Under the pieces are notes generated by a model, which was not told the origin of the DNA, made no database searches, and saw nothing but the letters and a program-made list of their open reading frames with translations. Source: Schmidtea nova (lineage: Eukaryota). From it: a stretch of DNA of 64,000 nucleotides. The stretch spans positions 264,430,001-264,494,000 of the forward strand of contig CM097883.1 in the NCBI GenBank assembly GCA_044892505.1, given 5' to 3'. Shown here in pieces: positions 1 through 28,532 of this stretch. The number at the start of each line of letters is the position of its first letter. The stretch's first letter is position 1. Position numbers and translations under genes: made by a program.

Positions 1-10
1 AATATTCCAG

Positions 11-3907: not shown

Positions 3908-3929
3908 TTGCGGGCCCCCGAGTATTTTA

Positions 3930-6900
3930 TGTTGGGCCAAAACGCAATTTGTTTTAATAAAGCGATAACCCCATAGGTAGAGAACGCGCAAGATTCCATT
4001 TTTAACCTTAGCTTCCATTAAAAATCCAACAATTAGGTGGAAAACACCAAAGGTGAAGATGAATCAAAACACATCAACCGGTAGACTACGCGCTAACTAC
4101 GAATTTATAAATATTTTCACTGAAATCGCGAGAAAAATTAAAAGCAGAATGTTTGGAAGCTAGAATAGGCAAAAAACCCATGGAGAATGCCCATAAAGAA
4201 CAGAATTTTGTCATAAACCTTCAAGTGCAGAAAAATTAACAAAAGTTTAGAAGAAAACTGTGAATTTATCACAAAATTTCACATATAACAATAGAGAGAA
4301 TTAATATGGATCGAATATCATAAATTAAATCAAATCGAACAAATTTCGATTCAAACATAAAAATTTTGAATTAAAATAAATTATTTATAGTTTATAAAAA
4401 ATTATTATACAAAACTATGGAATTAATTTTTGGAAAATCATTGGAATTAATTTAGAAAAAAATTAAGAGAAAATTCTAGAACAATTTGTTTTATTGCACT
4501 ACCGGAGATAGAGAAAATTTGATGGTATATATACCGCCATCAAAATGGCAGAATTCAGAATTTGGTGGAAAATTTTGGTATTTTTAAGAATTTAATTTCG
4601 TAAAAATTTGGCAGAATTTTTTTTTGGCAAAAATTTTATAGGGAATTTTTGAAAGAAATTTTTTCTAAAAGAATTTGTGGAAGAATCTTGAATCCAAATT
4701 AATTAATTGAAGAATCTTGAACTCAAATTTTCCGGAAGAATTTATTGGAGAAAATTCCTGAAGAAGACAATAAAAAATTTTAATTTCCAGAAGACGAGCC
4801 TTTTTGAAAAATCTTTCCCAAAACTTGGACTGTAAGGGTTATTTTATTTTATTTTATTCTCTTTTTATTAGCTCGTCCGAGGGGTATGGGATCGTCGATC
4901 ATCATGCCTGACGACCATCCCATTCCTCGCGTTCTTATGACTTATTTGTTATTTTATTTAATGTTCATATTTTATTATAATTTTATTTGAATATGAAATT
5001 TATTTTTATTTTGAAATTTTGTTATACTCACAAATTCCCAAAAATACTAAAACTTTTCAACAAAAATTATCTGAATAAAATTACAAAAATAAATAAATTT
5101 TTTTTTCTCCCATATCTTCTGACGATCCGTCCAGCCTTAGTTGTGCGGATCTGTTAGTAGCCTGGGTGGATCGTTGTCTGATTGGTAATCGGCCAGCCCA
5201 TATTTCCACTTTAAGGTGAGGCTCATACATCCAAATTCTCGTCATCCCAACTGGGGAATCGTGGTTTGGCCAAGAGCAAGGTTTTGTTATACTAATGATT
5301 TGTATTATAATAGAGTATCATATTTTTATTATCTACATAAGCAATTTCGTAATACAACATAATAATTTCTACCTCATGTCTTGAAATCTAAAATAGGAAA
5401 TATTATTGATTAAAAAGTCGACTCGTACTCACCTTCACCTTCACACTCTCAACAACGTTCATCTCATAAGAAAATGCAAGAAAAATGGATGCTGATGATG
5501 AAAAGAAAATTGTTCGAAATAATGCTCAAGTCTAGAATAATGCTCATGAAGTGAAATAAATTGTGAAACAAGTATTGATTTAATCTGAATTAAAGCTCAT
5601 TATGGTCTAAATAAGTTTTCCTGTGAATCTTGTTTTTCGAGAGCCTGAAATTCCTAAGTGAAGTGTCCCGAAAAATTCGCGTACACTTTGATTGGGAAAT
5701 TCATGCTCAACAAAACCGAAATTTACTTTACTTGATATTAAAAACATTCGTTGAAAAATTTTATAACTTATTTTTATTTTTATCTTTATTTAGCATATAA
5801 ATTTTTTTTTAGATTAAATGCTTATTTAGATTTCGAAACTTATGGATAAAAATTTATTATCATTTCATTTGGATCAGAAGTAAAAATTTGCTTTTTATTA
5901 TGTTGAAAAGATTTTATATGGAAAAAATTGTAAACCAAATTTGGTTCCTAATATTATTAATATATAAAAGATTTTATCATTTCATAAAATTCCGAGAATT
6001 TGAAAATCAAAAGTTATATTAAACCCCATAAAATTTATAGATTGAAATTTTATTATTATATTAAAAAACTCCTATCATTTTATAAAAATACGAATTTGAA
6101 ATTTTATAGAAAATTTTTTGGTTAATATATATTCTAAAATCTAAAAAGTTTAAAACCTATCTTATAAAAATTAAAAATTTTATCATTAGTAAATTTTTCA
6201 TGAAACTATAAATTAAAAAATTCATAAAAAGCATTATAAAACTTATTATTATTTTAATTTAAAATTATTATTATTATTATTTTAATTTAAAAATATTTTA
6301 TATAGTGTACTTGAATTATAATATAACCCCCCCACGATATCTTAAAAATAATGATACATCACTCATTGCAAGAAATCACACCCTTTACACTCAATAGCAT
6401 CATCCATACTAATACACCAGCAACATACATATAAAACACAATACACACATACACAGTGTCATTCAACAACATCCAACAATCACATACACACCAACAAACC
6501 ATACCAAAAATTTCACACAGCCATGCTAGTTAGAATCGTACGTCCAACCACACTCACAAGCACTCAATTGTTTTAAATCACTCATCATACAATCACACAC
6601 AAACGCAATAGTAACAATAGAACACACAGTCATCATACTACACCTCATCTACCAATAAATCATTTATTCTCATCCAACAGTCAAGTCAACATACAGACAC
6701 ATATAATCACATACAATCTCCTGTACTATCAATGAAAAATTCATAATAAACCTGTAAAAGTGTATCAACAATCAAACTCGAAATGATAGCATCCCACATC
6801 ATACATAGACATGCATACCTCCAAAAAGACAATGCCAAGGTTTCATCCCTTCAACCACCACAAAATACCATATTCATTTTACTATTTTTTTTTTTAAATA

Positions 6901-8217
6901 AGTCGGAAACTTCTGGTAAAAATGAGAACCAACAACCAAAAAACGATATTTATTTTTAAATAAAATCAATAATAAACTATTAGTCTTTATTATAAAGTAA
7001 ATTAAGCTTTCATATAAAATCAATAATCACGAACAATGGTTATTTTTATTATAAAGAGAATAAAAATCTTTTATCGATCAACGTTGCGCAAATACCGAGG
7101 AAAACTGATTGTTTGAGGAGTGAATGAGAAATCTCAAAATAAATTCCACTCAAAAACAGAAATTTGTGAAGAACTGTTAGAAGATTTCTTCGGAAAATGC
7201 TGGATCCTATTATTGACAATCTTGTTCACTTGTATTCTCATGGCTCTGACCTTTATAGTTTTAGTTGTTGAGAAGTGAAAAGATGCTTTCTGAATTCCCG
7301 TATTCAATTGGGAGGATATTGACATAATATTTAAGCAATTCATTTAAATATATTCCGATAGAAATCAATAACTGATGCCTTGTAGGAAGATTCGTAGAGG
7401 TTTTATCAATTCAGATATTCCTTTAGAATTAGATAACTCTATTGGCAGCTTAGAATTGACATCGTATAGTGAAATTGATTGGAATCACTGATCCCAGCTT
7501 CCATGTTCAGATGCTATGGAAGTAATTAATTTCAGATTATCAATTTTAATTAATAAATTTACTTATTTTTGCTAATAAACAAGCTTCATAGCGAATTGGA
7601 GCAGCATTCAAATTTCCTAAAGGTTAAATAAAAGTTTAAACAAATGAAATATTAATAGAAATTTAACTCAAGAAAATTATTTAAAGATATAAAAATGGAG
7701 AAAAAAAAAACTAAAGTAGAAATAAAATTATTTTCGTAAATTAAAAATTAAAGTTTTTATTTTATTTTATTTTAAATGTGGCATAAAAATTTATTTTTAG
7801 AATGCTTTAATTAACAATTACCATAAATCGCAATATTAGTAAAATTTAATGTTTTGTTAGTGTTTTTGATGCTCGGAATGATTTATTTGAATGCAATAAT
7901 AAATTTATAGTTAGGTAGAATATTAATGTTGAATTGCCGATAAAATTTTGTTGAATGCTTAAAGATAAATCGTCGAAGAAGGGGACAAAAAATGGGCAAG
8001 AAACCTTCCATCGGTAGCCCTTGGACCCAGGAGATATTCGGTCAATCATAGTTTCGTATTGACGACGCTCACTGATTGCGAATACCCACCCACTTGTTAC
8101 AGTACCAACGTTACATAGTGACGGGTAACAAGGTGGTAATTTAAATGTTTTATGTGTTGAGTTGTTGATGAGAGCCATAGAAACGTCAAGGTCATATTGA
8201 CGGTCAACAACCCACCA
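3930..8217 (+). repeat. LTR of family A (about 4.3 kb)
   Basis: Starts TGTTGGG, ends CCCACCA; both ends match the copy at 21607/53068, which is followed by a PBS. Confidence 0.8.
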
Positions 8218-8905
8218 ATATGTATGTATTAGGACGGACAATAAGTAGAGTTATAGAAGTTGATTTTATAGGGAGAATCTTCCAAAATAAATGAGTGTCT
8301 GAGTCGAAACGAGAAAATAGTCCACAAATTCATAACTGAGCTATCAAAAGATAGTACGCCAAGTTTTAACAGAGCTATCAAAAGATAGTACGTCAATATT
8401 TCTGTTGTTGAAAAATTAGCAAACAACAAACGGGGAAAAACCTGATCACCTTAAGGAGAAAGTGTAGAATAGGCCCCATCGCAAATGTTGATAAATTTCG
8501 TTTGTGACTGATCACCACAAATTGCGAAACGAGTTGACGCGATTATTTTACGATTTTGAATTAGGTGAAAGGGCTAAACCCGTAATGTTCGTCTTATACA
8601 CCAGTTTGCCAAGGCATGATTGGTACACTGAGGTAGAAGACAGTAACATCAGTAAAGAGAAAGTTGCTGAGAAAATTAGATGCAGATTTTAGAAAGTCGA
8701 AAGAGTAAAAAGCGAATTTCGATGAATATAGTAGATGATGGTATAATAAGAAAAGATTCTACCATGGTAGTTAAGGAATTAATTCGTAATTGAAAAGTAG
8801 TAGAACAATTTGAGAAAAACAGTCAGTAACAGCGAATTTATTTAAAAATTTGAGAAAAGGGAAACGAGTGATTTAATAGCATAAAGAGAATAATTGAAGA
8901 CGGCC

Positions 8906-9250
8906 GAGATAATTGAGAAACTTTGAGAGTTCATGTATGTGAGAGACTTTGAGAGTCCAGATAATTGAGAAACTTTGAGAGTTCAGTGAGAGACTTTGAG
9001 AGTCCAGATAATTGAGAGACTTTGAGAGTCCAGATAATTGAGAGACTTTGAATGTCCAGGTAATTTAGAGACTTTGAGAGTCCAGATAATTTTGAGAGCT
9101 CTGGGAGAGACTTTGAGAGTCCAGATAATTGAGAGACTTTTAGAGTCCAGATAATTGAGAAACTTTGAGAGTTCATGTATGTGAGAGACTTTGAGAGTCC
9201 AGATAATTGAGAACCTTTGAGAGTTCATGTATGTGAGAGACTTTGAGAGC
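8906..9250 (+). repeat. Tandem array, unit about GAGAGACTTTGAGAGTCCAGATAATT (26 bp, with variants)
   Basis: Directly visible repeats of ACTTTGAGAGT; related array at 57270-57690. Confidence 0.9.
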
Positions 9251-9528
9251 CCAATGTTTGTGAATATTGTTGAGAAATTTAGGAAAACGTTTGAGAGATA
9301 GAATTAAATAAAACTGCGCAGTTAAAATTTTGTTATGATAGAGAGAAACGTTGAACGTGAATACTTAAGGTATAATAATATTAACAAGAGCAGATAAAAG
9401 ATATTGAAAAATACCAGGAAATAAAATAATGACCATAAATAGATCACGAACAAGACTTTTTTTTTAAAAAAAACCTCGAACGCCGAGATGAGTCTGAAAA
9501 CGAGTCGACAGGATCGTACTGTTATTAT

Positions 9529-9564
<36 letters not shown>

Positions 9565-10028
9565 ATCAGGGTATAGATAATTGATACGACCATATAGATA
9601 ATTATTACGAGATATAGATAATTTAAAATCTGAGCTCAGAGTAAAAGGGGGGGGGGTAAATAGCGTCGATGAAGAAGCGATTTTATTTTAGACTGTCCAA
9701 CAGATCAAAGCCAAGTCAAGAGACAGTCAAATCAATCAGTTATTGAAGAGGTATATATAGAAGAAAAGAAGAAAAAGAAATATAATTGAAAAGGAAAGAA
9801 GTAAAAGAAAATAAATCAAAGAAGATCCAATTGAAGATAAAAGAGAGATCAGCAATCGATATTAAACACGAATTGATAATATTACTAAACCAACCAAGTT
9901 CGTAAAGTCGAAAGATAGAATCAAATCTATTAAGAAACGACGAGAGGAAATTGCAAAGAAACAAAGCTGATAAATAAAGAAGTAAAATCCACAATATTAG
10001 AAAGTTTGTAGCCGATTTTCAGAAAGAA

Positions 10029-13000
10029 ATGGAGGAGAATCAGAAAGTTACCAGTGTAAACTCGGAAGACAATTTATTAGAAGAAGAGCAGAAAATAACC
10101 AGTCCAAACGTAGAAGATAATTTACAGGAAGAAGAAAAAGAAGTAGTAACAATGAAAATGCAACTACAACAGAATATCGAAGGAAAAGTAAATGAAATGA
10201 TAACCGAATTATCAGACGTTGAAATTGAAAGAAATAGAAATGTATATGAATTTTCAGTAAAAGATATGGAGGGAGAAGAAAAGAAGAAGTTTGTGGAGAA
10301 ATATAACCGAAAAAGAAGAGGAAGAAGAAGCAATGATGATACATGTAGCATGGACGAGAAATGGGATGAATCTACGACAATCAAATTAGAAGAAGTGGCA
10401 CAAAGATTGTTAAACATTACCATAGAAGAAATGACGAAAATGAATCAGAAGTCGGAAGAAAAAAGAAAATCAGCGAAGCTCGAAAGATCAAAACAAACGG
10501 AAACGTCAAAGACCGAACGATTAATCAGTAACCTAAGCAAGAGTGCAAGAAATCAATGTGAAACAACAACTGAGTTACTAAAATGGGTTACAAAAATAGT
10601 GCAAATATATCAAACATGAGATTGATAGTGAGAGAAATCGAGAAATGCAGACGTTTATGCCCTTGGTATGCAAAACAATTTGATGACATCATGAGAAAAT
10701 GGAAACAACTGGAACAAACAAACGATGATCCACAGATGAGCAGATTGAAAATTCAGTTTCCGAATCTAGAAGAAATAAAGATGAATGTATCATTAACAAC
10801 AAAGATCAAAGAGATAAAAGAGAGATTACCATTCAACTTACCATTTCACTTGAAATATGATGGATAATCGCTGGATGATGATATAGAAATCGGTGTAACC
10901 CCGATACAAATCGAAACAAGTAATAAATTAACTGTTGATAAAATTGCAGGAAGCGAGTTGACCAGAAAAGCGAGAGGTGAAGATAATCCCGAAACAACGA
11001 TAATTGCAATGATGAAAACTCCAGCTGGACCAACACTTACAATTAACATCGAAGTTAATGGTGTGAAAGTAGACGCGATGATAGATACTGGCGCAAATAT
11101 ATCAGCAATAGATATCGATATGATACCAGAAATGTTATGGTCATGCATCGAGAAAACATCAGTAGACGTAATAACATGCAGCAAAGAATCTGTCAATATC
11201 ATTGGAAAGATATGGACGGACATCGAATACAGAAAAGTAAAAATATCAACTTATTGGACAGTCATAAAACAACTGGGTGCCTCATGCATTATTGGAACAG
11301 ACGTAATACCAAAACTGTTAAAAGGATCTGTAATCGATTTGAATACGATGAAGTTGAAACACCTAATTGAAGAGAATTGCACAAGAGAAACAATGATAGA
11401 ACAATCAAATCAAGAAATGACCAGAAAAGGACAAGTATTTATGTTTCGAGAAAATGCAAATGACGATTGGCTACATCGTATATTAACTACGAGCAGAACA
11501 GTAAATCAGTCAACAACAATATCTGAACAACCTAAGATAGTGGACGATGTAAAAATGGAGCACCGCAAAAAGATGGAATTGATCATTGAGATTACCAAAG
11601 AAATTATGCCAGAATGGTCAAAAAGTAAAAATCTATTTGAAATATTAGGAGGAGTAAGCCTAATGGTTGAGGAATATGCCAAAGGAAATGAAACAACAGA
11701 AGCGATGAATACCATAAAAGAAAGATTACCAATATTATTTACAATTGCCAGTTTTAAAGATGAGATACCATTGTACCACGCAATAAAAAGTGGGAATGAA
11801 CAGAGAATATTTGAAATCATAAAGCTCATGGAAAAGTGCAAGCAACATACCAACACAAAAAACTGGAAAGATCAAACACCCTTGATGATAGCAATTGAAA
11901 AAGGAGGATCCAAGAAACTCATAGCAGAACTGATGAGAACCGGATCAAGTTTTAAAGAAAGAGATGATAAAAATGAAACGGTGTTATCATATGCAGTGCA
12001 AGCGAATAACCATCAAATAATCAAATATATTATGTCAAATGCTACAGAAGAAGATATTGAAGTGCTCAGTTCAGATCCAAATCCATTAGTAAATGCAGTG
12101 AACAAAGATGGCGACGAAACAACAGCAAAAATGATTAAATGGTTACATCCAGTCACGCACGAAGGAGTGATAAATGTCAATGACAGATTTGAAGACAGTG
12201 AAAATATGATAATGAAAAGAGCCATGAAAAGAAAATGGAAAATGTATAAAACGATTAAAGCATTGCTGCAAAGACCTGATTTCAGATTTACAAACAACAA
12301 AAAAGAAAAAGAAAGAATGGGATCTAAAAGACATGAATTATATCAGCAAGTCATCATATGGAAAGAAAATATAAAAGAAAGCAGAATTCACCGAAGTTGG
12401 AACAACGCCAAAGATGAAATAACCAAGAGAGCAAATATAAAAGCCGAAGCAGATGAAATAGCTAAAAGATATGAGGAAATAATAAAATTAATAAATGTCG
12501 AGGACGACATTTTAAACGGAACCTAGGGTGGTTCTGATTATCACAATAACCCTGACAATGAAGATGAAGAGAATGATAACAACAAAACAAAGAAAGATGA
12601 CAATGAAAGTACCAACAGAAACAATGACAAAGACGAGAAAGATGATGGAAAAAGCAACAAAGATGAAAATGGGAACAAAAGTGATGAACCCAAGCAAGAA
12701 ACTTCAAATTATGAGAAACGAACAGCATGTCTACATAAAACTCGAATAAAAGACATAATATTACTGATATTGATGCTGCCAGCATTGAAAGGAACGGAAG
12801 TTGATGACAAGAGAAAACCAGTACAAATATTAATACAAGGATCAGATAATGAAGAAGCATGTTGGAGTAGCGTCAAATTGCAATTTAAAGGAGATAATCC
12901 AGTCAAATGCTAACGAGCAGAAAAAGGAGAAATCCGAATAAATGGATTGAAACGAGAAACAAAATACAAAATCTGTGTTTACAAAAAGAAAGCAGCACAA

Positions 13001-13138
13001 GAATTGTTAAGAACACTCGTATGCCAAATAGTAGCACATTATGGCTCAAAAGTCACCCAAGAAGACATAAAAGTAATATTAACCGACGAGCCAGATGAGA
13101 ACATCAGAGTGTCGTCGAAACGCAAGTTGTCAGAGTAA
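10029..13138 (+). pseudogene. Disrupted reduced polyprotein: helical domain - Ubl-like - aspartic protease - ankyrin repeats - acidic linker - signal peptide - FN3-like
   Basis: AMIDTGANISAIDI protease motif identical to element B; TPLMIAIEKG ankyrin motif; frameshift near 10590 and stops at 10865, 12524 and about 12910; copy at 58463-61574 has mostly different lesions. Confidence 0.8.
10958..12526 (+). CDS. Retropepsin protease fused directly to ankyrin-repeat domain (open segment of the A2 polyprotein)
   Basis: DTG active site; PLYHAIKSG / TPLMIAIEKG / TVLSYAVQAN repeats; aligns by eye with the C-terminus of B pol (YAKG, INVEDDI). Confidence 0.8.
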   Translation: MTRKARGEDNPETTIIAMMKTPAGPTLTINIEVNGVKVDAMIDTGANISAIDIDMIPEMLWSCIEKTSVDVITCSKESVNIIGKIWTDIEYRKVKISTYWTVIKQLGASCIIGTDVIPKLLKGSVIDLNTMKLKHLIEENCTRETMIEQSNQEMTRKGQVFMFRENANDDWLHRILTTSRTVNQSTTISEQPKIVDDVKMEHRKKMELIIEITKEIMPEWSKSKNLFEILGGVSLMVEEYAKGNETTEAMNTIKERLPILFTIASFKDEIPLYHAIKSGNEQRIFEIIKLMEKCKQHTNTKNWKDQTPLMIAIEKGGSKKLIAELMRTGSSFKERDDKNETVLSYAVQANNHQIIKYIMSNATEEDIEVLSSDPNPLVNAVNKDGDETTAKMIKWLHPVTHEGVINVNDRFEDSENMIMKRAMKRKWKMYKTIKALLQRPDFRFTNNKKEKERMGSKRHELYQQVIIWKENIKESRIHRSWNNAKDEITKRANIKAEADEIAKRYEEIIKLINVEDDILNGT

Positions 13139-13288
13139 CCAGTGGAAGGAACAGTGTATATAGTGTATAAAATTATATTGTATTATAAAAGTAGAATATA
13201 TTTGTATAATAAAAATTTAAAAATCCAAAAAATGAATACCTCAAAACTGGGAAAAACAAATGATAATATTGTGTAATTATTGTCAGAA

Positions 13289-13924
13289 ATGAATCCGAAC
13301 AACGAGAGTCAAAGTTATCAAACATCAGTTCCAACGTTCAATGAACCATCAAATCAAACTCAGTTTCCAGAAGATACCAATATACGAGAAAGAGAAGGGG
13401 CACTGCAAACCCCAGTAATCGAAAATGAAACGCAAAATCCAACAATTGACGATAGAAACCTGATATACCAAGTCGAAATTCCACTATTTGATGAAACCAT
13501 GAACCCAATTCAAACGACACTCGTATTAAATCAACAAACAACAAATAGCCAGACTCAATCAATATCAGCTCCAATGGTTTATCAGCAGACAATGACGCAA
13601 GAGTTATCATGGAAAACGCAATGTGAATTATTAAGCAGGATGTTGAATCAAGCCTATGCACAATGGAAAAACGAACAAGCTTTGTTAACAGAGAGTGTAA
13701 ACAGAAATTTATTATATCTTGCCAAAATGGAAGAACAACAACAAATGATAATCCAAAAAGATCAGAGAATTGAATGGTTAACAAGACATACGGAGTGGCA
13801 AACAAACGAAATTAGAAGATTGAATGAGACGCGAGAAGAAGTTAGAGCATGGTATAACTGGTTAGACAATTTTCCAGAACCGGTTCGAGAACCTGACTCG
13901 ACGGGAAGGGATGAACTATTATAA
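13289..13924 (+). CDS. 211-aa protein, low-complexity N-terminus and coiled-coil C-terminus, unknown function
   Basis: Intact ORF from ATG 13289; start conserved at 61726. Confidence 0.7.
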   Translation: MNPNNESQSYQTSVPTFNEPSNQTQFPEDTNIREREGALQTPVIENETQNPTIDDRNLIYQVEIPLFDETMNPIQTTLVLNQQTTNSQTQSISAPMVYQQTMTQELSWKTQCELLSRMLNQAYAQWKNEQALLTESVNRNLLYLAKMEEQQQMIIQKDQRIEWLTRHTEWQTNEIRRLNETREEVRAWYNWLDNFPEPVREPDSTGRDELL

Positions 13925-13964
13925 AAATTTAAAACCAGTGTAAATAAAATGTAAAAATGTGAAT

Positions 13965-15422
13965 ATGAATAAAACTTGGTATAAAGAGCAAAACGAAAAA
14001 ATTGTAAATTATTTTAGAATGCAGACCAAGAATCAGCAGAAACAAGAAGAATTGATCGAACTATATCAGATACTACAGAGACAACGGATAGAACCAACAG
14101 AATTTCAAGAAAGATTTAAATGTAAAGTATGTAGAAATTTATTGATAGAACCCAGACAAACTGAATGTGGATGTCGAATATGCACTAATTGCGTGATGAA
14201 AATAATACGAACTAAACAGAAGCTATGTCCTGAATGTGGTGAAGCAATAATAGATCAATTTGACCAAACCAGACCAGATATCGCAATGAATCGGAATATA
14301 ATGAACGCAGCAACAACCTGTCCAAATAAACCATGTGTATGGAGTGGGCCAATAAAATGGATCGCCAAACACCTTTATAATTGTGATGATACGAAAGCCA
14401 AATGCAAGTGGTGTGAAGAAGAAATTTTGAAGAAAGTCAAAGACAGTCATGAGGAAATGTGTGAACAACGACAGGAAATCTGTGAGTTTTGCAACGAAAC
14501 AGACGCTTGGATAGTGTTAAAAGATGAGCATTGGAATATAGAAGAAGGGCAAATATGTGACGAGTATGAAGGTAATTGTAATCAATGTGGAATGGCAGAA
14601 AACGTGAAGCTAAAAGAACATTGGGAAATATGCGAAAAGAAGCCTACTGCATGTCCACTAAAATTATTCAATTGCAAAGTGAGATTACCAAAAGAGGAAA
14701 TACAAAAGCATGTCGATGAAAATAGTATAAATCATTTGAGAACCGTTGTGGAAGCTATTGGAGCAACCGCACTGGTAATTGGAGAAGCCAACACAGAAAT
14801 AAAATCACACAAAATCATGATACAAGAGATGTTGGATACGAGAGGAAGTTTTGAAAGAATAAGAGAACAAATGATCCAAAAAATGATACTATTAGACCAG
14901 AAAATAGCAGAAATATCAACAACAGAACAAAGATTGGAAAACATATTGCCAACAATGGAAGAACTACCCGTCACACTCTACTATTGGAAAATCACAGAAT
15001 TTACAGAGAAATTGAGACTAGCAAGAGAAGGAGGTCAACGTGTATGGACAAGTCCACCTTGTCACAGTTGGAATCATGGTTACAAGCTTAGATTCAAAGT
15101 ATATCTAACGGGAGACGGACTAGGAGCCGGAACTCATTTATCTGTATATTTTCAAATATGTAAAGGAGATTATGACGATTGGTTAGAATGGCCCTACGAT
15201 TGCGATATAATTATGATGATCGGAACAAAGGAAAACAACGTTCGGGAAGTATTCAGACCAAACTTGAGGAAGGTAGAAGCAGCTTATAGGAAGCCGATCG
15301 AAAACTACAACGTAGCTGTAGGAAACCCACGTTTTATTGCATTACATTATTTAACCATAGAACAATCATTGTATTTGGTAAATAATATCCTGTATCTGAT
15401 TATCGAAGTGAGGAAGCCGTAG
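13965..15422 (+). CDS. TRAF-family protein (RING, TRAF zinc fingers, coiled coil, MATH), intronless
   Basis: RING CKVC..EPRQTECGCRICTNC..CPEC; Cys/His fingers; MATH signature YLTGDGLGAGTHLSVYF..KGDYDDWLEWP. Confidence 0.92.
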   Translation: MNKTWYKEQNEKIVNYFRMQTKNQQKQEELIELYQILQRQRIEPTEFQERFKCKVCRNLLIEPRQTECGCRICTNCVMKIIRTKQKLCPECGEAIIDQFDQTRPDIAMNRNIMNAATTCPNKPCVWSGPIKWIAKHLYNCDDTKAKCKWCEEEILKKVKDSHEEMCEQRQEICEFCNETDAWIVLKDEHWNIEEGQICDEYEGNCNQCGMAENVKLKEHWEICEKKPTACPLKLFNCKVRLPKEEIQKHVDENSINHLRTVVEAIGATALVIGEANTEIKSHKIMIQEMLDTRGSFERIREQMIQKMILLDQKIAEISTTEQRLENILPTMEELPVTLYYWKITEFTEKLRLAREGGQRVWTSPPCHSWNHGYKLRFKVYLTGDGLGAGTHLSVYFQICKGDYDDWLEWPYDCDIIMMIGTKENNVREVFRPNLRKVEAAYRKPIENYNVAVGNPRFIALHYLTIEQSLYLVNNILYLIIEVRKP

Positions 15423-15739
15423 TGAAGATGAAAAGAAAGTGTAAATATGTCTGTATTATAATACATTATCGGTATCATAATGTACAAAATAAAATTAGAA
15501 AATCACAAAAAACATAAAAAAAAAAAAATTAAAAAGAAATATAAAAATGAGAAAAACCAAAAAATCAAATATAAAAATGAGAAAAATCAAAATTTTGTAA
15601 ATATAAAAAACAAAAAATTGTGAAAAATATGATGTAGAAAATATTGTAGATACAATGACTGAAAGGAAGATCGTGAAAATACGAGAAGATGATAGATCAT
15701 TCAAATGTTTGTGCGAATTAATGAAAAGAGAAAGAAAAG

Positions 15740-16822
15740 ATGTCAAAACCAATTACCTCAGAAATGATTCATTGTCGATTTACACGAACAATATCGAATG
15801 TTCCTAAGGAAAGGAGGTATGGAAAATTCAAAATTATTGATGAAACGTTAAAAAACGAGAACCGAAGATATATAACCTTTTTACAACAAGACCATTTCTA
15901 TGAAAAGCAATACAGAAAATTCGCCAAAGAGGGTTTGTATTTTGCAGGGACAATTGAGAAACCCGATAAAGTAACCTGTGTATTTTGCAGAATCGAAATA
16001 GAACCTTGGAGAATTAACGATGATCCACTAACAGAGCATAGAAAACTTTCACCCACATGCCAGTTTGTGTTAAAGGCATACGAAAAACCAAGAAAACCAG
16101 CAACAATGAACAATGATGAAGAAGAAAAACCCAAAATAGTAACGATAACTTCGACAGGCCCAGCAAAGATACGATTCATAGAAGTTGACCCAAAATATAC
16201 GATTAATGGGAGAACTAACACTTTTGTAGATAAAAAGATGGGTATCAGATTAGCAATAGAAGGTTTTTATGCAATAAATGAATCAACCGCTGAATGTTCA
16301 GAGTGTGGAATACAATATCAATTACCAAAAGAGGAAGGAGAATACCTGAAACACAACGAATATTGTAAATATGGAGAAGAATTATATGAAGACGAAGAGC
16401 CGATCAATTATAAAAACCCAGAGATGCCTGTTAATGAATTATTAGTAGACAAGATATTAGATGAACCACGAACTCAAAAGGCAATGGAACGCACCGGCAA
16501 AAGCGAAATATTTGTGAAAGAAGTTATCAGAGAGAGATTGAGAAGAAATGGAGAAACATTTGGATCAACCCTAGAATTCTTTAAAGCTATAATACAGTTC
16601 ACCAGAAAATCCCAAGTTGTCAACCCAGAATCATGTATCAAGAAAGTTATATTAAATAAACACCCCTGTTCAATCTGTTGGATAAAGAAAGTGGAAGTTA
16701 TTCATTTACCGTGTGGACATCTGTTAGCATGTGAAAATTGTAGCAATAAATTGAGATTGTGCTCAATGTGCAGGAAACCGGTTGACAAACGGATCAAGGG
16801 ATTCCGTTATGCCGATCAATAA
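15740..16822 (+). CDS. Inhibitor-of-apoptosis (IAP)-like protein: BIR, degenerate second BIR, C-terminal RING
   Basis: BIR: GLYF..DKVTCVFC..IEPW..DDPLTEHRKLSPTC; second AIEGFY..CSEC..H..C; RING CSICW..IHLPCGHLLACENC..CSMCR. Confidence 0.92.
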   Translation: MSKPITSEMIHCRFTRTISNVPKERRYGKFKIIDETLKNENRRYITFLQQDHFYEKQYRKFAKEGLYFAGTIEKPDKVTCVFCRIEIEPWRINDDPLTEHRKLSPTCQFVLKAYEKPRKPATMNNDEEEKPKIVTITSTGPAKIRFIEVDPKYTINGRTNTFVDKKMGIRLAIEGFYAINESTAECSECGIQYQLPKEEGEYLKHNEYCKYGEELYEDEEPINYKNPEMPVNELLVDKILDEPRTQKAMERTGKSEIFVKEVIRERLRRNGETFGSTLEFFKAIIQFTRKSQVVNPESCIKKVILNKHPCSICWIKKVEVIHLPCGHLLACENCSNKLRLCSMCRKPVDKRIKGFRYADQ

Positions 16823-16956
16823 TCCAATCAAGCAACCTTGTAAATAAATTGTAAAGATTTTAACTTCAATTGATGTATACAAGTATTATTTAATAAGCAT
16901 GAGCAACAAAAAATGTATAAACAAAAGGAAATTACCCATGTTATTATTATTTCAGA

Positions 16957-18504
16957 ATGAATATACAACAATTGATAGGCATCCTAGATCAGGAGATGGC
17001 AAAAAGACAAGAGCAAATTAATCAAATGAAAAGCTATGAACAAAGAATGGAAGCCATTCAAGAGAACGTCATAATAATTGAAAAACGAACCCAAGAGATC
17101 AACAAAATAAAAGAAGAAAACGAGGAACTGCGAAAGATAATAAACGACAAGGCGCATATCGAAGCTGAACTGGACAATTATAAACGAGAGTACAGAGAAA
17201 TGGAGAGAAAACTCGAGCACGAACAACGAAAGTCGGTACCATTGAAAAACCAAGCGAGATTAAGAAAAGAGGAGCTCGAAACCTATAAGAGAGATACCGA
17301 AACAAGGTACGACAACACCATAAGATACTATCAGCAGCAACTCGTAAGTGAAAGAAACAGATATGAAGCCATGATCAAGAAATGGGAAAAGTGTCGAGAT
17401 GAAGCATTTGCTTTGAGAGGACAACCTCAAAAGAAACCTAAAACGAGAACGAGAGAAATCCAGCCTGAAAGCGAACAAGAAAAGATCATTAGAAAAGTTA
17501 AAGCAGAGGCTAGGAAATGGAAACAAGAACACCAAGATTTATTGGAAATGGCTCGACACAGAAAAATGCTACAGGAAGAATTTCTAAGACGGAGAGACGT
17601 TCAAATCGATGCTCTGAAAGAGGAATGTCATTGGTATGCAGACATACGTCATGAGGAAACGGAGAAACTCAGAAAAGAAATATTCCAGTTGAAAACGAGC
17701 GGACAATTCAGAGAACGAAGCATAAGGCATCAAATAAAGTGGCTAAAAGAACAAGCCAGAACATGGAAAAAGACCTGGAAAAGAACTCGAGACGAACTAC
17801 GAGAATTCCCAAAGAAGCTGATGTCAATAAATGAAGCAGAATTGTGGGAAAATGCAGAAAAGCAAGAGATAGAAAACAAAGAATTAAGACGGCAAGTTCA
17901 ATTAAAAACCGAATGGAATCAAAGGAGAATGAAATTTACCAGGAATCAAGAAGCTCGTATCAAATATCTGGAATTTGAAAACAGGCAATATGATCAACAG
18001 AAAAATATGGACGATAGAAGTATTGAAGAACTGACAATCGAATTGACTATTGCGAACCGTAAGGTCAACGGATATCGAGGTACAAATACTCATAAAGACA
18101 TTGTCATTCAACACCAGCGACGGCAGATAGAAGAGACAAAGGCCGAATGTGAAAAAGCGATCCAGCAATCCCAAAAGGAAATCGAAATGGCTATCCAAAG
18201 TTTGGAAGAAAACCGCCAAAACTATGAAAGAGAAATTGAAAGGCTGAAAAATATGGAAAATACGAGAGAGCTCGAGATAGAAAAGGAACAGCTGAGTGAA
18301 GAACTCGATTATATGACATATTTGCTAGATGAAGAGATAGAAATCTCAAGAACTTTGCGAGAAAGAGTTCAGAGCCTACAAAATCAACCTCCAATAATTC
18401 TATGGCCACTATATCCAACACCAATACAACCTGTACATTTGGAGCAAGAAAATCCTCAAATCGAAGATGAAGGGTTCGGAGAAATTGAAGAGACGTTTGT
18501 ATGA
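16957..18504 (+). CDS. 515-aa long coiled-coil protein ending DEGFGE..ETFV
   Basis: Intact ORF, E/K/R/Q-rich heptads; C-terminus homologous to 46428-47489. Confidence 0.85.
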   Translation: MNIQQLIGILDQEMAKRQEQINQMKSYEQRMEAIQENVIIIEKRTQEINKIKEENEELRKIINDKAHIEAELDNYKREYREMERKLEHEQRKSVPLKNQARLRKEELETYKRDTETRYDNTIRYYQQQLVSERNRYEAMIKKWEKCRDEAFALRGQPQKKPKTRTREIQPESEQEKIIRKVKAEARKWKQEHQDLLEMARHRKMLQEEFLRRRDVQIDALKEECHWYADIRHEETEKLRKEIFQLKTSGQFRERSIRHQIKWLKEQARTWKKTWKRTRDELREFPKKLMSINEAELWENAEKQEIENKELRRQVQLKTEWNQRRMKFTRNQEARIKYLEFENRQYDQQKNMDDRSIEELTIELTIANRKVNGYRGTNTHKDIVIQHQRRQIEETKAECEKAIQQSQKEIEMAIQSLEENRQNYEREIERLKNMENTRELEIEKEQLSEELDYMTYLLDEEIEISRTLRERVQSLQNQPPIILWPLYPTPIQPVHLEQENPQIEDEGFGEIEETFV

Positions 18505-18794
18505 ATAATAAAAGTGAATGTAAAGTGTAAAAAGAAGTCGAAATGTAAAGTGTAAAAAGAAATTGAAATGTAGTGTAAAAAGAAAACGTTGTAAAGAAAT
18601 GTAAAAAGAAAAAGTCGTAAAATATATCCAAAAAAATTAAATAAAAAGCAGAAAAAATAAAAAATTCGATAAAAAATAGAAAAAATGAAAAACAAATAAA
18701 AATTAGAAAATGATAAAAATAATAAAAATGATAAAAACAAAAACAAAATTAATAAAACTATAGAAAAGAGTTATGAAAATTCATATTATAGAAA

Positions 18795-19370
18795 ATGAGA
18801 CTATTGAAGCAAAGATCAGAACCAGAACAACAGACGATATCAAAAGAAAGATTCAAAAAATGGAAGAGAGCAACAGAGCAATATTATCAAGACCAAATAG
18901 ATCAATTGAAGGAAGTAATGAGCAAAGATAGAAAATATATCGCACAAATGGAACAAAAGTGCGAGACGATGGAAATAATCAAGCGAGAAAATTATCTATT
19001 TCGCCAACAAAATGGTCTTACCCAAAAATATTGCGACAGACAGAAGCAAGAGATTGACAGACTCAAAAGGGAAATAAGCAGTGAACAGAACACTGATAAT
19101 AAAAGGAGAATTAAGATCGAGTCATTACAACGATCCTTGAAGAGCAAACAGAAAAAGATTATCAAAAGAGAAAAACAGATAATAAAGTTGAAAAGTGAAA
19201 TCATAGAAGCAAAATTTGATACATTCAAAGCAAAGAAAGTTGTAGAAATCAAAACGGCAGAAAATTACGTCCTCAAAGAACAAAGGCGAAAAGAAGCAGA
19301 CGAGATTGCAAAAATGGGTAACTGGAAGCCAGAAAATCCGTTAAAGCTAAATGAAGAGACGAAAGAATAA
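18795..19370 (+). CDS. 191-aa coiled-coil protein (copy of 1107-1682)
   Basis: Near-identical translation to 1107-1682. Confidence 0.75.
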   Translation: MRLLKQRSEPEQQTISKERFKKWKRATEQYYQDQIDQLKEVMSKDRKYIAQMEQKCETMEIIKRENYLFRQQNGLTQKYCDRQKQEIDRLKREISSEQNTDNKRRIKIESLQRSLKSKQKKIIKREKQIIKLKSEIIEAKFDTFKAKKVVEIKTAENYVLKEQRRKEADEIAKMGNWKPENPLKLNEETKE

Positions 19371-19465
19371 AATATATCTAAACTCATGTAAATATCCCTG
19401 TAAAAATATAAAAGAGAAAATTTGACAAATCATTAAATAAATTTGAATCTATAAATCTATAGAAA

Positions 19466-20290
19466 ATGAGCAATCTAATGAGGATCACAACAACCATCAT
19501 GATATTTATAATTACAAACTGCCGAAGCGAAGAAGCATTGAGTCAATGTCAAGCAAGCCATCCATTTAGAAGATCCGATAGCATTTGCGTAAGCTATCAA
19601 GAAATTTGTAGCACCAGGAATGAGGAGTGTCAACAGATACAATTACAATGTCAACAATGTCCTAAATCCATTGAAGATTCAATCACCATCCTTAAACAAT
19701 TGAGAAATGAAACTCAACAATTAATCCAACTACAAATCTCCTTAACCAAAAAGAACAATCTTCAACTAAAGAAACAGCTCGAAAACCAATCATCTTTCAA
19801 ACAGTTGACAACCGAACTAAAGAAATTGAGCAAGTTAATAGAAAAATCTCTAAATAATAAAGACGAAGTTAGCGAGGAAAGATCAAGTTTTACAGAAGAG
19901 TTAAATCAAAAACTGAAAAGTCAACTTCATCAGACCGAGAGAATTATAAAACAATTGATATCATCCGAAAAGCAGAAAGAGATTATCCCTAAACAAGGAT
20001 CAACCAACGAAGACGTCAGAGACCGAGAAGCAGCCATCACAGTCGTCCTACAAGGTATCAGTCTTTTCGCGGTCATAATGATCCTTAGCATTGTTGCATC
20101 AATCGGATTAGAATAAATGAAATTAGAGAAAGCGAAAATCCAGTTGAATACCATCAAACGAATCACCCATGAAGACAACAACCCGTCAGAAAATTTTCTG
20201 AGATCAATATTTGAAGATCCAGTTCCAGAACAGCCTAATCCTGAGACATCTACAACCTCGATGTAGATGAATTACTTCTATAAACAATAA
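19466..20290 (+). pseudogene. Disrupted copy of the Cys-rich membrane protein
   Basis: In-frame stops at 20114 (AAA>TAA) and 20264 (CAG>TAG) relative to 1778-2602. Confidence 0.85.
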
Positions 20291-20494
20291 TACGATTCGA
20301 TTCCCCTTTTTGACAACTCATGTATTTTCTTCCATTCATTTAATCTATCTATCTATTTGTATTCTCATCTTGAACAATATTTCATCATCATTAAATCATA
20401 ACCCTGTTTAAAAAATCGTAACGCCCTTGTAAATAGCAAAAATTATTTATCGTCATTATTCAATTTCTTTCTATTAGAAACACAAAAATTAACA

Positions 20495-21289
20495 ATGAAA
20501 TCTTACCGAGGAGTTTTCTTAATCGCCATGATCACAACAATTTATTGTCATCTCGAAGAAACCCAGAAATCAAGCCAATTAAACCCAAATCAACAATGTA
20601 ATAAAGAACCATCTGAAATCTCTAACAACAAACAACTATTCGAAAAGATTGAGCAAGCCAAAATCGAAATTCAAAATACCCTTTTCAATCAAAATGATGA
20701 AATTTCAGGTCTAAAGAGAATAGCAAGGATAATATTAGCCGACTTAGCGATCAGAGATATATTCGAGGATATTTTTGATAATGATCGAGAAACCCGTGAC
20801 GCAATAAAAAGTCTCACCAAAGAACTTAAAATGAACGTAGGCAAGTTAATCGATCAGCTAACGATAAATTCATCAAGTCCGAAATGTCTGAAACAAATTT
20901 ATCATAACCTGTCCCAGCAGATATCCGAAGTAGGAAACCAAACGGCACAACAACTGAGAAAGGCTTATTTCGAGAACCTGGCATTTAGGAATTAAATCAA
21001 TGATCACATAAACGAGATATCGAAACCGGATAACAATCAAGACAGAGACAAGTGCAGAATATCCCCCCTATCATCCGAACGAATTCTCGATATCTGCCTG
21101 ATCATCCTTAACTTTTTCCTAATAATCGGAATTTGTGGTATAATATGGTTAGGCTTGACCGCCACAAGAATGATGAATAACATGATCTCCGAACAATCCA
21201 GAAGAGAAGATGACAAGAAACAGTTGATCAATACCGAGTCAATCAAACTATTCCAGTCGAAGATCCAACCAATTCAATCCAAAAGTTAA
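20495..21289 (+). pseudogene. Disrupted copy of membrane protein 2800-3594
   Basis: Premature TAA at 20993 and a 9-nt in-frame deletion relative to the A1 copy. Confidence 0.85.
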
Positions 21290-21606
21290 TTCAACAAACT
21301 TAATAAACTTGATAAAACTTTTATCCGAGTCGTTGTAGACTCATATCGAACTTTGATTAGCCGCTGTAGGCACATATATTACATTACATTTAATTTTGCT
21401 TGCGAGTCGATGTAGACTCATATTAATGTATACGTATTAACTTTTTATTAATTTTTATCACTTTTTATTTTTATTGTCGCGAACGGCATGATCACGACCA
21501 AGTAGCTAGTGTATAATGTACAACCTTTTGACCTTTGATTAATCTTGGTTCTTAACCCCTCTGAGAAATTGCGGGACGCAATTTTTGCGGGCCCCCGAGT
21601 ATTTTA

Positions 21607-23841
21607 TGTTGGGCCAAAACGCAATTTGTTTTAATAAAGCGATAACCCCATAGGTAGAGAACGCGCAAGATTCCATTTTTAACCTTAGCTTCCATTAAAA
21701 ATCCAACAATTAAGTTGAAAACAACAAAAGGTGAAGTGGAATCAAAACACATCAACCGGTAGAGTACGCGCTAACTGCGAATTTGTAAGTTTTTCACTGA
21801 AATCTCGAGAAAAATTAAAAGCAGAACGTTTGGAAGTTAGAAAAGGCGGAAAACCCATTGAAAATGCCCCTAAAGAACGGAATTTGTCATAAACCTTCAA
21901 GTGCAGAAAAATTAACAAAATTTTAGAAGAAAATTGTGATTTTATCACAGAATTTCACATTTAACAATAGAAAGAATTAATATGGATCGGAATATCATAA
22001 ATTAAATCAAATCGAACAAATTTAGATTCAAACATAAAATTTTGAATTAAAATAAATTAATTATGATTTATAAAAAATTATTATATAAAAATATGGAATT
22101 AATTTTCGGAAAATCATTAGAATTAATTTAGAAAAAATTAAGAGAAAATTCTAGAACAATTTGTTTTATTGCACTACTGAAGATAGCGAAAATTTGATGG
22201 TATATATACCGCCATCAAAATGGCAGAATTCAGAATTTGTGAAGAATTTGTGGAGAAAAAAATTTTTTTTTGTTGTTAAAGATTTGGTGTAAAATTTTCG
22301 AATTTTAATTCTATTGGGTCCCAGAGAAGATTTTGCTGAAGATTTCAATTTAGCTCGCAGCAGACATTTTGAATAGAAGACATTGCCGAAGAATTTATTT
22401 GGAAAAAATCTTGTGAAAAAATTTGAGAAAATTTTTTTGGAAACTCTCAAGAAGTCTAGAGGACATTCCGAACATTTTGCAGAATTTAATTCCCGGAGTG
22501 CGAACCTATTTTTTCAGAACTTGGAACGTAAGGGTATTTTTATTTTATTTTTGTTTTAGCTTGTTCGAGGGGTATGGGATCGTCGATCATCATGCCTGAC
22601 GATCATCCCATTCCTCGCGTTCGTATTATTTCATAATATTTTATTATTATTGTATTAATATTTTGATGTATTATTATTTAAATAGCGAATTCATTTTTAT
22701 TTCGATTTATTTTTGAATTTTCTAAATGTATAATTCACACATTCCCATAATATTAAAAACTTTCATGCAAAAATTATCTAAATAAAATTATGAAAACTAA
22801 ATAGATCTTTTTTTCTCCCATATCTTCTGACGATCCGTCCAGCCTTGGTTGTGCGGATCTGTTAGTAGCCTGGGTGGATCGTTGTCTGATTGGTAATCGG
22901 CCAGCCCATATTTCCACTTTAAGGTGAGGCTCATACATCCATAATCTCGTCATCCCAACTGGGGAATCGTGGTATGGCCAAGAGCAAGGATTTGTTATAC
23001 TAATGATTTTTATTATTATAGAGTAGTATATTTTTATTATCTACATAAGCAATTTCGTAATACAACATAAAATTTTCTAATTCACGTCTTGAAATCTAAA
23101 ATAGGAAATATTACTGATTAAAAAAAAATCGACTCGTACTCACCTTCACCTTCACACTCTCAACAACGGTCATCTCATGCGAAAACGCAAGAAAAATGAA
23201 AGCTAATGATGAAAAGAAAATTGTTCGAATTAATGCTCAAATCCGATGGAATAATAATGAAACCGAAATTAACTTTACTCGATGTCGAAAAATATTCGTT
23301 GAAAAATTTATAACTTATTTTTATTTTATTTTTATTCAGTATATAAAACTTTTTAGGTTGAATGCTTATTTAGATTTCGAAATTTATGGATGAAAAATTT
23401 ATTATTATGTGGATTTCGTTTCGATCAAAAAATAAAAATTTACTTTTTATTATATTGAAAAAATTTTTATAATGAAAAATTGTAAACCAAAAATTTTCCT
23501 AATATTGTTATGATATAAAAGATTTTGTCATTTTATAAAATTCCTAAGAATTTATAAATCAAAACTTATATTGAAACCCATAAAAATTTTAAATCGAGAA
23601 TATTATTATTATATTGAAAATTTTATCATTTTATAAAATCCAAAATTTCGAAATTTTATAGAAAGAATTTTTACTATTAACATATATATATATACTTAAA
23701 ATATAAAAATTCGAATATAAAAATGTATATTATAAAAATTAGAAATTTTATTATTATATTATTTTCATAAAATTATAAATTTAAAATTTATAAAAAGTAT
23801 TATAAAAATGTATATTATAAAAATTAGAAATTTTATTATTA
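21607..23841 (+). repeat. Family A LTR, left part (interrupted by element B)
   Basis: Starts TGTTGGGCC; collinear with about 3930-6200. Confidence 0.85.
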
Positions 23842-25316: not shown

Positions 25317-25796
25317 ATGTCGACAGCCGAGATTGAGAACCAATTGACTCAAATGCGAAACTTGGAACAATGGAATGCAGAAAATGGAATGGTCTCTCAA
25401 CTCAAAGAGCTACCTACACCGATATTGCGGATCCTCAATGCCCAAATGTATAAGTGGAGACATGGGTTTGGTCGAAAATGCCCGTTTTCAATATGGGTAG
25501 GAGGAAGTGACCAAGTACTTTACCGCGGAGGACCGAACTGGCCAATTACCCAAAGGCCTTACTCGAACAAATTTGGTCGAATGATCGTGGTAATAAAGGA
25601 CGCAGAAGGACGAGCGAGCCGCATAATTTATTGGGGACATATCCCTCGCCGAGAATTGTGTCGATTGGGCCTGCACGAGTTTCTGCCGCGGAAACCATTC
25701 GGCAAGGAATGCCAGAAAGGGCAACCCTCGTTTTCTTGGGCTCGCCTTCGTCAGATGCCGATAAACAACGAGATGCACAGCCTATTTCGGCGATAA
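25317..25796 (+). CDS. LTR-encoded 159-aa basic protein, unknown function
   Basis: Intact, GC-richer than flanks, ATACAG directly before ATG; repeated at 49812-50291. Confidence 0.7.
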   Translation: MSTAEIENQLTQMRNLEQWNAENGMVSQLKELPTPILRILNAQMYKWRHGFGRKCPFSIWVGGSDQVLYRGGPNWPITQRPYSNKFGRMIVVIKDAEGRASRIIYWGHIPRRELCRLGLHEFLPRKPFGKECQKGQPSFSWARLRQMPINNEMHSLFRR

Positions 25797-25986: not shown

Positions 25987-26583
25987 ATGAATATCGATGT
26001 GGCACACAGGGAGTTGGAAAAGATGTGGCGAATCCGGAGAACCCAGGACAAGGAATTGGGTCTCCTCAAAGCACAATTAATCAAAGCCGAGGCACAAGTC
26101 ACATATTTACGCAAAAGCTGGTTTGCTCCGGCTAGGATGAAGGAGCAAATCAGTAAAACCGAACGTGCCCAGCAAACTGCAGCAGATTATAAAATGGAAT
26201 GGGAAGCTACAAAAATAGAGCTCCGAAAGTGCCTCCATTCCATAACGGCCTCGTACATTGAGAAGGAACTGCGAGATCAAATCCGTCCTATTACATATCA
26301 AAAATGGACATCGGAAAAGAAAAGCGTCAACTCGATTGGCACGGACATCGCTGATCTCACCGAAAGCCAAAACGAGCCGGTTCCAGCAACAAATCCATCC
26401 ATTTCAATGGTAAATGCGCACCAGAAACGCAAGCGCATCGGGCAGAAAAGGCGACGGCAAAGAAAGCTGTTTGCCCAACGATTACAGAGCCAAGTAGATG
26501 GCCTGCATCAAATGACCGAAGGGGAATTATTAACGGAAATCTTTCCCCCAGCCGGAGTTTTCACTGAACTAATTAAAGATTGA
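25987..26583 (+). CDS. LTR-encoded 198-aa coiled-coil protein with basic cluster
   Basis: Intact; KRKRIGQKRRRQRK NLS-like stretch; repeated at 50482-51078. Confidence 0.7.
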   Translation: MNIDVAHRELEKMWRIRRTQDKELGLLKAQLIKAEAQVTYLRKSWFAPARMKEQISKTERAQQTAADYKMEWEATKIELRKCLHSITASYIEKELRDQIRPITYQKWTSEKKSVNSIGTDIADLTESQNEPVPATNPSISMVNAHQKRKRIGQKRRRQRKLFAQRLQSQVDGLHQMTEGELLTEIFPPAGVFTELIKD

Positions 26584-28531: not shown

Positions 28532-28532
28532 T

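Follow-up and report, generated by a model that had tools for sequence, protein, structure and literature searches.

TRAF and IAP genes as probable long-resident cargo of a non-autonomous Burro-type retroelement in the planarian Schmidtea nova

The stretch of DNA considered here, called the window, comprises 64,000 nucleotides of the forward strand of contig CM097883.1 of Schmidtea nova (assembly GCA_044892505.1, positions 264,430,001 to 264,494,000), with a base composition of about 67% AT. It holds two adjacent, intronless genes, one encoding a TRAF protein and the other an inhibitor of apoptosis (IAP), which a first-pass annotation made from the letters alone had placed inside a retroelement. 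Comparison of the window with itself reveals a tandem array of a long terminal repeat (LTR) element, termed element A, with a second element, B, inserted into the repeat LTR2. The TRAF and IAP genes lie in copy A1 of this array, and are probably accessory genes that have long resided in a high-copy, non-autonomous derivative of Burro-type gypsy elements; this derivative would be copied in trans, express its genes as separate cassettes, and favor cell survival. The features of the window, in which ORF denotes an open reading frame and PBS a primer-binding site, are as follows.

1-3929, plus strand: copy A0, 3' end of the internal region with four accessory ORFs; 93.5% identical to 17679-22249, ORF pairs with dN/dS of 0.08-0.31
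3930-8217, plus strand: LTR1 of element A (TG...CA), common to A0 and A1; matches LTR2 blockwise at 78-94%, and contigs from public runs exit at 8217
8218-21606, plus strand: internal span of copy A1, from self-comparison
8218-9977, plus strand: 5' leader of A1, containing a block of tandem repeats; homologous to A2 again from 56619
9978-13138, plus strand: A1 mini-polyprotein with a homologue of the ubiquitin-like region, an aspartyl protease, ankyrin repeats and a tail (Pfam RVP, Ank_2)
13289-13924, plus strand: accessory ORF of 211 aa, no Pfam family; acceptor 2 nt before its ATG and TGTAAATA 15 nt past its stop
13965-15422, plus strand: full-length TRAF of A, probable start 14019 (Pfam, relatives of solved structure, alignment to the TRAF of B)
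15740-16822, plus strand: IAP of A with a BIR, a shortened BIR, a UBA-like domain and a RING, probable start 15764 (Pfam, structural model, fold search)
16957-18504, plus strand: probable coiled-coil accessory ORF, 515 aa, homologous to 46428-47489 of B (29% identity); dN/dS 0.10
18795-21289, plus strand: three more accessory ORFs (starts 18795, 19466 and 20495), the latter two with a hydrophobic segment
21607-53068, plus strand: LTR2 of element A, in two parts (21607-23841 and 51548-53068) around element B, from self-comparison
23842-51547, plus strand: element B, Burro-like, 27.7 kb (3.2 kb LTRs, target-site duplication, PBS, domain order)
44938-46314, plus strand: TRAF of element B, 458 aa, 37% identical to that of A, Cys/His ligands kept
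53069-61835, plus strand: copy A2 with PBS at 53079, an upstream RING ORF (55806-56288) and the same mini-polyprotein; 93.4% identical to 8228-13398

Element A measures about 21 kb with both LTRs and carries seven accessory ORFs. The polyproteins of both A1 and A2 are devoid of a gag zinc knuckle, env, reverse transcriptase (RT), RNase H (RH) and integrase (IN). They map to three separate parts of the B polyprotein, namely residues ~396-555 of one piece, the protease, and one ankyrin block, with the same B blocks skipped in the two copies, and A is otherwise collinear with B in polyprotein, TRAF and coiled-coil ORF. On sequence grounds, this shared deletion, which the first-pass annotation had overlooked, marks A as a non-autonomous family and not merely a broken copy; it is a Burro derivative that stands outside Burro in the strict sense, having no gag knuckles, env, RT, RH or IN of its own. 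Burro-type ancestry, read from the sequence, can be assigned to the element with high confidence. The remaining hallmarks of an LTR element are in place, including LTRs, a PBS (in A2), a 3' priming region and many insertion sites, and both the PBS of A2 and an 18-nt motif ahead of the LTR are identical to those of B. This PBS presumably matches tRNA-Pro; its motif occurs in the window only at 27059 and 53079. A search of the window for tRNA genes gave none. Copy A1 is dead: its PBS is lost, as are about 3.5 kb of the leader present in A2, among them the upstream RING ORF.

The A1 polyprotein is indeed broken, as had been claimed, by one frameshift and three stops. These breaks are not family-wide: three of the four are listed in the contig comparison described below, where most contigs differ from A1 except at the frameshift, at which the alternative reading makes up a minority of contig depth. 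One polyprotein stop falls at the same codon in A1 (10865-10867) and A2 (59300-59302), and most family contigs read through it; the shared stop points to common descent, or to conversion between members of the array. Among the 3' accessory ORFs, those starting at 19466 and 20495 are broken in A1 and intact in A0. A recurrent deletion variant of 578 bp (20616-21195), seen in three of four runs, lies within the last of them.

The first-pass annotation had described the two genes as bounded by LTRs, and LTRs do flank them, at 3930-8217 and 21607-53068. They are, however, shared units of the array and no matched pair, being only 78-94% alike by block in comparison with 93% for the internal copies, which implies that distinct members of the family are joined in the array; A shows no target-site duplication within the window. 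Recent tandem duplication of a single copy was considered and rejected, in view of a between-copy divergence that is mostly synonymous.

Evidence from outside the window came from contigs of four public runs, of which X1-X3 belong to one study and X5 holds little; summed contig depth was not taken as copy number. In X2 and X3, respectively, 192 and 174 contigs leave the element exactly at 8217 into mixed flanks, agreement beyond the edge being 0.39 and 0.38, which fixes the LTR edge and indicates many insertion sites. The family is thus high-copy, so that these TRAF and IAP genes owe their multiplication in this genome to transposition. The first-pass suggestion that such elements could drive TRAF expansion remains a proposal with respect to the expansion annotated in S. 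mediterranea. Between copies in the window, the ratio of non-synonymous to synonymous substitution (dN/dS) is 0.10, 0.08, 0.11 and 0.31 for four 3' ORFs, 0.27 for the protease-ankyrin region and 0.22 for the N-terminal piece (Fisher p from 0.02 to 5e-14). These low values indicate that the A copies diverged while their proteins stayed under selection.

The TRAF of A was annotated as full-length and intact, and proves to be so: its frame is uninterrupted, with 485 aa from the first ATG, and lies on the same strand as the IAP. Pfam recognizes TRAF-mep_MATH (1e-21) and MATH_2 (2.5e-18), with weaker zf-TRAF and RING matches, and the protein displays the architecture of the family, with a RING, five zinc fingers, a coiled coil and a MATH domain. 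The closest solved structures are those of TRAF1/5/2/3 (E 5e-23 to 2e-20), and the Atlas score to TRAF clusters is 0.97; in comparison with TRAF1/5, the serine-rich MATH stretch (SASFQRP, SSFKRP) is replaced. The splice-acceptor rule presented below places the start at the in-frame ATG 14019, close to where the TRAF of B begins, and a protein of 467 aa is likely. In element B, the TRAF follows directly upon the polyprotein and, as had been noted, is diverged, sharing 37% identity with that of A with its zinc ligands kept; both have an unusual RING in which Cys replaces the usual His. Between the two, dN/dS is 0.47, a value near saturation. As also noted in the first reading, no IAP is found in B between its TRAF and the coiled-coil ORF that it has in common with A; TRAF and ankyrin repeats occur in both elements, and BIR in A only. 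A search with the MATH region of the B TRAF yielded 2 matches among 212 candidates, and protein searches by words, in which the IAP and the TRAF served as queries, returned nothing at E<=0.001 among 1,183 and 3,436 candidates.

The IAP frame is likewise uninterrupted (360 aa), and the in-frame ATG 15764 is its likely start, giving 352 aa. The first-pass description of an intact BIR-BIR-RING protein is correct, with two qualifications: the second BIR, though real, is shortened and degenerate, and a UBA-like domain had been missed. Pfam reports one BIR at residues 51-110 (3e-16) and an IAP-type RING (8e-11), so that the protein combines a BIR of the form Cx2C-x16-H-x6-C with a C-terminal RING, as IAP family members do. 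BIR2 reads Cx2C-x15-H-x3-C and falls under the Pfam BIR threshold; in a model built from a 54-sequence alignment, which itself favors a BIR there, it takes on BIR-like secondary structure (pLDDT 87-96). The UBA-like segment (residues ~233-293) is helical in the same model (pLDDT 92-97) and folds confidently even without an alignment, a condition under which the whole IAP reaches a pLDDT of 33; its alignment with the matching stretch of cIAP1, at 0.1 bit, is positional only. A fold search returned the BIRs of cIAP and XIAP as well as viral IAPs, and an Atlas search with residues 140-300 gave a score of 0.83, to be taken as a lead only. Relatives of the protein were examined among the best 150 of 4,920, from which a FastTree tree was built with the query and the 134 that end in an IAP RING. 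Among these best 150, P0010 (UPI00060EC19E) shares 39% identity and a nearly identical C-terminal end, and P0044 (UPI000602CAF0) can be aligned over its full length at 25% identity and shares the shortened BIR2 and the extended tail. The three proteins form one branch (SH 98 and 97), on which branches are long. Both relatives are of atypical composition, from which it is guessed that P0044 may be a host-type gene.

The remark, in the first-pass annotation, that an IAP-like cargo is reported for a planarian Burro element was right, and the published cargo is wider. Burro/GYPSM1 are giant gypsy-like planarian LTR retroelements with MATH_TRAF_C, BIR, ankyrin and BCL2-like motifs and an in-frame env (PMC6431247, section 7). 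Element B shares their layout. Its 3.2 kb LTRs are identical at 3,197 of 3,210 positions (99.6%), with a 4-bp target-site duplication, and enclose a PBS, a RING ORF, the polyprotein, the TRAF, a coiled-coil ORF and a membrane ORF. The polyprotein (29310-44845) spans ~5,180 codons, is now broken into pieces, and displays in Pfam the order gag CCHC, fusion glycoprotein, protease (PR), RT, RH, IN and ankyrin repeats, with the PR-RT-RH-IN order of gypsy elements. The fusion glycoprotein (Monjiviricetes_fusion, 1e-18 and 5e-44) lies in frame, directly ahead of RVP, and the RT is Ty3-type, with Ty3 as its best solved relative (E 3e-80). At the published Bcl-xL position there is only a weak match (E 1.8; four of seven among the matches listed), at the published dUTPase position a weak dUTPase/dCTP deaminase match (E 0.3-1.5; five of six among those listed), and for the Ubi/SUMO-like motif a weak Rad60-SLD match (E 0.03) in the A homologue. 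Since the 27.7 kb of B fall under the published Burro length of >30 kb, it is labeled Burro-like.

Several further observations concern the two elements. The coiled-coil ORFs of A (16957-18504) and B (46428-47489) end in a near-identical acidic tail, and possibly correspond to the 'Smc' motif of the published Burro description. ORFs 1778-2602, 2800-3594 and 47565-48134 have signal-peptide-like starts and one hydrophobic segment, match no known family, and may encode membrane proteins. An IAP-type, RING-only ORF sits between PBS and polyprotein in both B (27385-27846) and A2 (55806-56288); the two are 28% identical to each other, and their RING is 30-40% identical to that of the IAP. The LTR of B holds two ORFs without a known family (25317-25796 and 25987-26583, with copies at 49812 and 50482), each with an acceptor directly before its ATG, and a donor-like site at ~25200 lies upstream of both. 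The 5' leaders of A and B contain tandem-repeat blocks with 21-47 bp units at equivalent positions (8886-9290, 28321-28763 and 57251-57725). In the leader of A2 there are three assembly gaps (53375-53703, 54364-54513 and 54527-54770), and an occurrence of TGTAAATA at 55437 hints at an extra ORF hidden in the gap region. Just ahead of its TRAF, A2 is truncated by a minus-strand element (61836-64000) that is unrelated and carries RNase H and integrase.

RNA-processing signals, likewise overlooked in the first reading, recur gene by gene. They were surveyed around 14 stand-alone ORFs, after removal of tandem duplicates, of copies in the 3' LTR and of fragments of the polyproteins. A TAG or CAG ends 0-3 nt before the first ATG in 10 of these (12 if a second in-frame ATG is allowed), against 71 of 779 other ATGs (binomial p ~5e-8); the predicted acceptors of the TRAF and IAP lie at 14017/14018 and 15761/15762. 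Past the stop, TGTAAATA appears at 15-18 nt in 6/14 ORFs, or in 7/14 if TGTAAA[TG] is accepted, over a background of 0.5-1%, and 8 of the 13 plus-strand occurrences of TGTAAATA in the window fall 15-19 nt past a stop. In the 3' spacer of the coiled-coil ORF (18505-18620), a run of TGTAAA(A/G) units represents a multiplied form of this motif. Donor-like sites in the LTRs make a cis-spliced leader possible. Planarians also possess spliced leader (SL) trans-splicing, by which flatworm operons are resolved at UUNYAG acceptors, according to the accessible part of PMC12582326. With regard to the 3' motif, UGUAAAUA is described as a Pumilio element, and DjPum as maintaining neoblasts, in the portion available of PMC5855632. 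A CFIm-type UGUA signal was considered less likely; planarian poly(A) signals are reported, in the available text of PMC5068929, to lack an upstream UGUA motif, which favors the Pumilio reading. Four of the motif sites overlap AATAAA, which weighs against it. Taken from the sequence, the accessory ORFs are rather likely to be separate expression cassettes, expression itself being a prediction.

In the most likely mechanism, complete Burro elements would package and copy A in trans, and A would stay in circulation together with its protease, ankyrin repeats and accessory genes. A single LTR-driven transcript would, as the signals suggest, be resolved into separate mRNAs, with each ORF gaining at its own acceptor a 5' leader, either cis-spliced from the LTR or a trans-spliced SL, and a short 3' untranslated region with a Pumilio-type element. 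TRAF and IAP, acting as RING ubiquitin ligases or adaptors as their families do, could then damp death or innate-immune signaling where the element is active, which would help new insertions survive. They need not work as a pair, and both would be dispensable in some copies. For the pro-survival function, argued by analogy, the chances appear evenly balanced.

A number of observations weigh against this reading. Three of the four runs come from one study, which is possibly the source of the window itself. The window contains a single A-type TRAF and a single A-type IAP, so that selection on both is judged indirectly, and two short polyprotein pieces are without a purifying signal (0 synonymous versus 3 non-synonymous changes; dN/dS 0.82). 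Among the 40 listed differences between A1 and the contigs (731 others exist), four of the five within TRAF and IAP are non-synonymous; this copy of the two genes is drifting. A deletion joint from 13718 to 16803, which removes the TRAF and almost the whole IAP, is present in all four runs, a second joint that removes both genes occurs in one of the four, and B carries no IAP. Both rules, for the acceptor and for the 3' motif, were set after inspection of the sequences, so that their p-values flatter, and 2/14 ORFs have no acceptor and 7/14 lack even the looser 3' motif. The losses and the drift are also what would be expected if the genes were captured cDNAs that hitch-hike without benefit to the element, intact only through the youth of the copies. 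However, 63% divergence between the TRAFs of A and B has left every zinc ligand and the reading frame in place, dN/dS is close to 0.1 in neighboring cargo ORFs, an acceptor and a 3' motif accompany each of the genes individually, and an IAP with 39% identity and the same last residues exists in P0010, all of which makes neutral hitch-hiking improbable. The cargo has been retained over long periods, although some lineages do without it.

The proposal that the host has co-opted the TRAF and IAP of A1 while the polyprotein decays draws on the intactness of these two and three other ORFs next to a polyprotein with four breaks and two broken 3' ORFs. It is very improbable, given that the family is high-copy, that the selection signal lies between copies and not on A1, and that the listed copy-specific changes are mostly non-synonymous. 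That the two are ordinary host genes between unrelated repeats, as might be suggested by two LTRs of A1 that are no matched young pair and by the lack of a visible target-site duplication, is barely credible and was rejected: gene order is collinear with B, the flanking internal sequence is repeated in A0 and A2, contig depths across TRAF and IAP are of the same order as over the remainder of the element, introns are absent, and the third-position A-rich bias (0.45 for TRAF and IAP) is close to that of the element (0.46-0.55). The first-pass assignment to a retroelement stands in this respect. A question of another kind, which concerns function and not the identity of the element, is whether the proteins form a complex that blocks apoptosis in the manner of TRAF2 and cIAP1/2, a ubiquitin-ligase module of TNF-receptor signaling. 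The genes are adjacent on one element and are lost together in the deleted variant, and the TRAF, which has a coiled coil, belongs to the TRAF1/2/3/5 type; BIR1 scores about equally against cIAP BIR1 structures (3m1d, 3m0a) and other BIRs. Yet joint deletion of neighbors requires no functional link, the TRAF occurs without an IAP in B, and some family copies are without both. Furthermore, in the place of the cIAP1/2 layout of three BIRs, UBA, CARD and RING, the IAP has two BIRs, one of them shortened, a UBA-like domain and no CARD, and its BIR1 carries the W..DDP..EH pattern of peptide-binding BIRs. Such a complex seems unlikely. The reading of TRAF and IAP as long-resident accessory genes of a non-autonomous Burro derivative does not depend on it.

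A wider proposal, put forward only tentatively, would see Burro-type elements and their coding satellite as operon-like carriers of cell-survival genes, expressed as individual mRNAs (possibly by SL trans-splicing) under Pumilio control. The satellite would persist through a TRAF and IAP that favor the stem cells in which it resides, and a large share of the planarian 'TRAF expansion' and of the 'genic' traf, E3-ligase and ankyrin targets of SMEDWI-3 would be retroelement cargo. TRAF expansion has been treated as that of a host gene family, 99 MATH transcripts being counted in PMC6109357 and 150-212 contigs for each human TRAF in PMC7586133; in the accessible text of both there is no Burro link, and 'transpos' is absent from the main text of the latter. 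SMEDWI-3 degrades 'a multitude of traf mRNAs' as well as E3-ligase and ankyrin transcripts, the same set as the cargo found here, in a report whose main text does not contain 'Burro' (PMC6824462). BURRO1 is derepressed after smedwi-2 RNA interference (RNAi) in the available part of PMC8532177, and Burro is mentioned once in that of PMC11410931. Should Burro cargo account for many such transcripts, the gene counts, the reading of RNAi experiments and the account of 'genic' piRNAs would have to be revisited, and the share of TRAF transcripts concerned is directly testable by mapping. A non-autonomous element with selected ubiquitin-ligase cargo and per-gene signals would, if confirmed, show how a retroelement can express many downstream genes.

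The presence of TRAF/MATH and BIR cargo in Burro is already published, as is the idea that this cargo is 'meddling with apoptosis and ubiquitination' (PMC6431247), which limits the novelty of the find. The carrier, non-autonomous yet coding, seems to be unpublished, as do the cassettes of whole proteins and the splice and 3' signals found gene by gene. In the literature searched, no paper dealt with a coding derivative of Burro that is non-autonomous, described splice or 3' signals belonging to individual Burro ORFs, or traced the TRAF expansion to Burro; accessory ORFs and derivatives may, however, be treated in Jurka 2007 or in Grohme 2018 and its supplements. PMC6431247 cites these two works for Burro/GYPSM1.

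In published Burro, a single polyprotein spans ~4,900-5,100 aa, and the Dugesia tigrina element has an ORF1 of 5,140 aa with its TRAF in a separate ORF (PMC6431247). Element B is alike in its giant polyprotein of similar length (~5,180 codons), with gag, in-frame env, PR, RT, RH, IN and ankyrin repeats, and A and B between them share with Burro the MATH/TRAF and BIR cargo, the TRAF being a separate accessory ORF as in D. tigrina. The published MATH_TRAF_C and BIR motifs lie within ORF1 in S. mediterranea and in an ORF upstream in D. tigrina, whereas the TRAF and IAP described here are whole proteins, in separate cassettes downstream of the polyprotein. Element A departs further from Burro, in that the gag knuckles, env, RT, RH and IN are gone and only ~21 kb remain with both LTRs.

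Among non-autonomous LTR derivatives, which include the LARD and TRIM types, the latter reportedly known from Echinococcus (PMC4558846), A finds its parallel in the retention of LTRs, PBS and pre-LTR signals, the loss of RT and integrase, and a high copy number. It differs from them in keeping a protease, ankyrin repeats and seven accessory ORFs, the testable ones under purifying selection, which makes it a coding and not a non-coding satellite. The IAP, for its part, has the two-BIR and RING size and fold of viral IAPs (baculovirus IAP-3, nudivirus, nimavirus and ostreid herpesvirus), which are its best matches in a library of viral structures (E 1e-12 to 1e-9). Unlike these, to which it is only 15-21% identical, it has a UBA-like domain and groups with P0010 and P0044; the likeness appears to be one of layout, and descent is not implied. 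Finally, the arrangement recalls that of TRAF2 and cIAP1/2 in that a RING-zinc finger-coiled coil-MATH TRAF adjoins a BIR-UBA-RING IAP, and differs from it in an IAP that has neither a third BIR nor a CARD.

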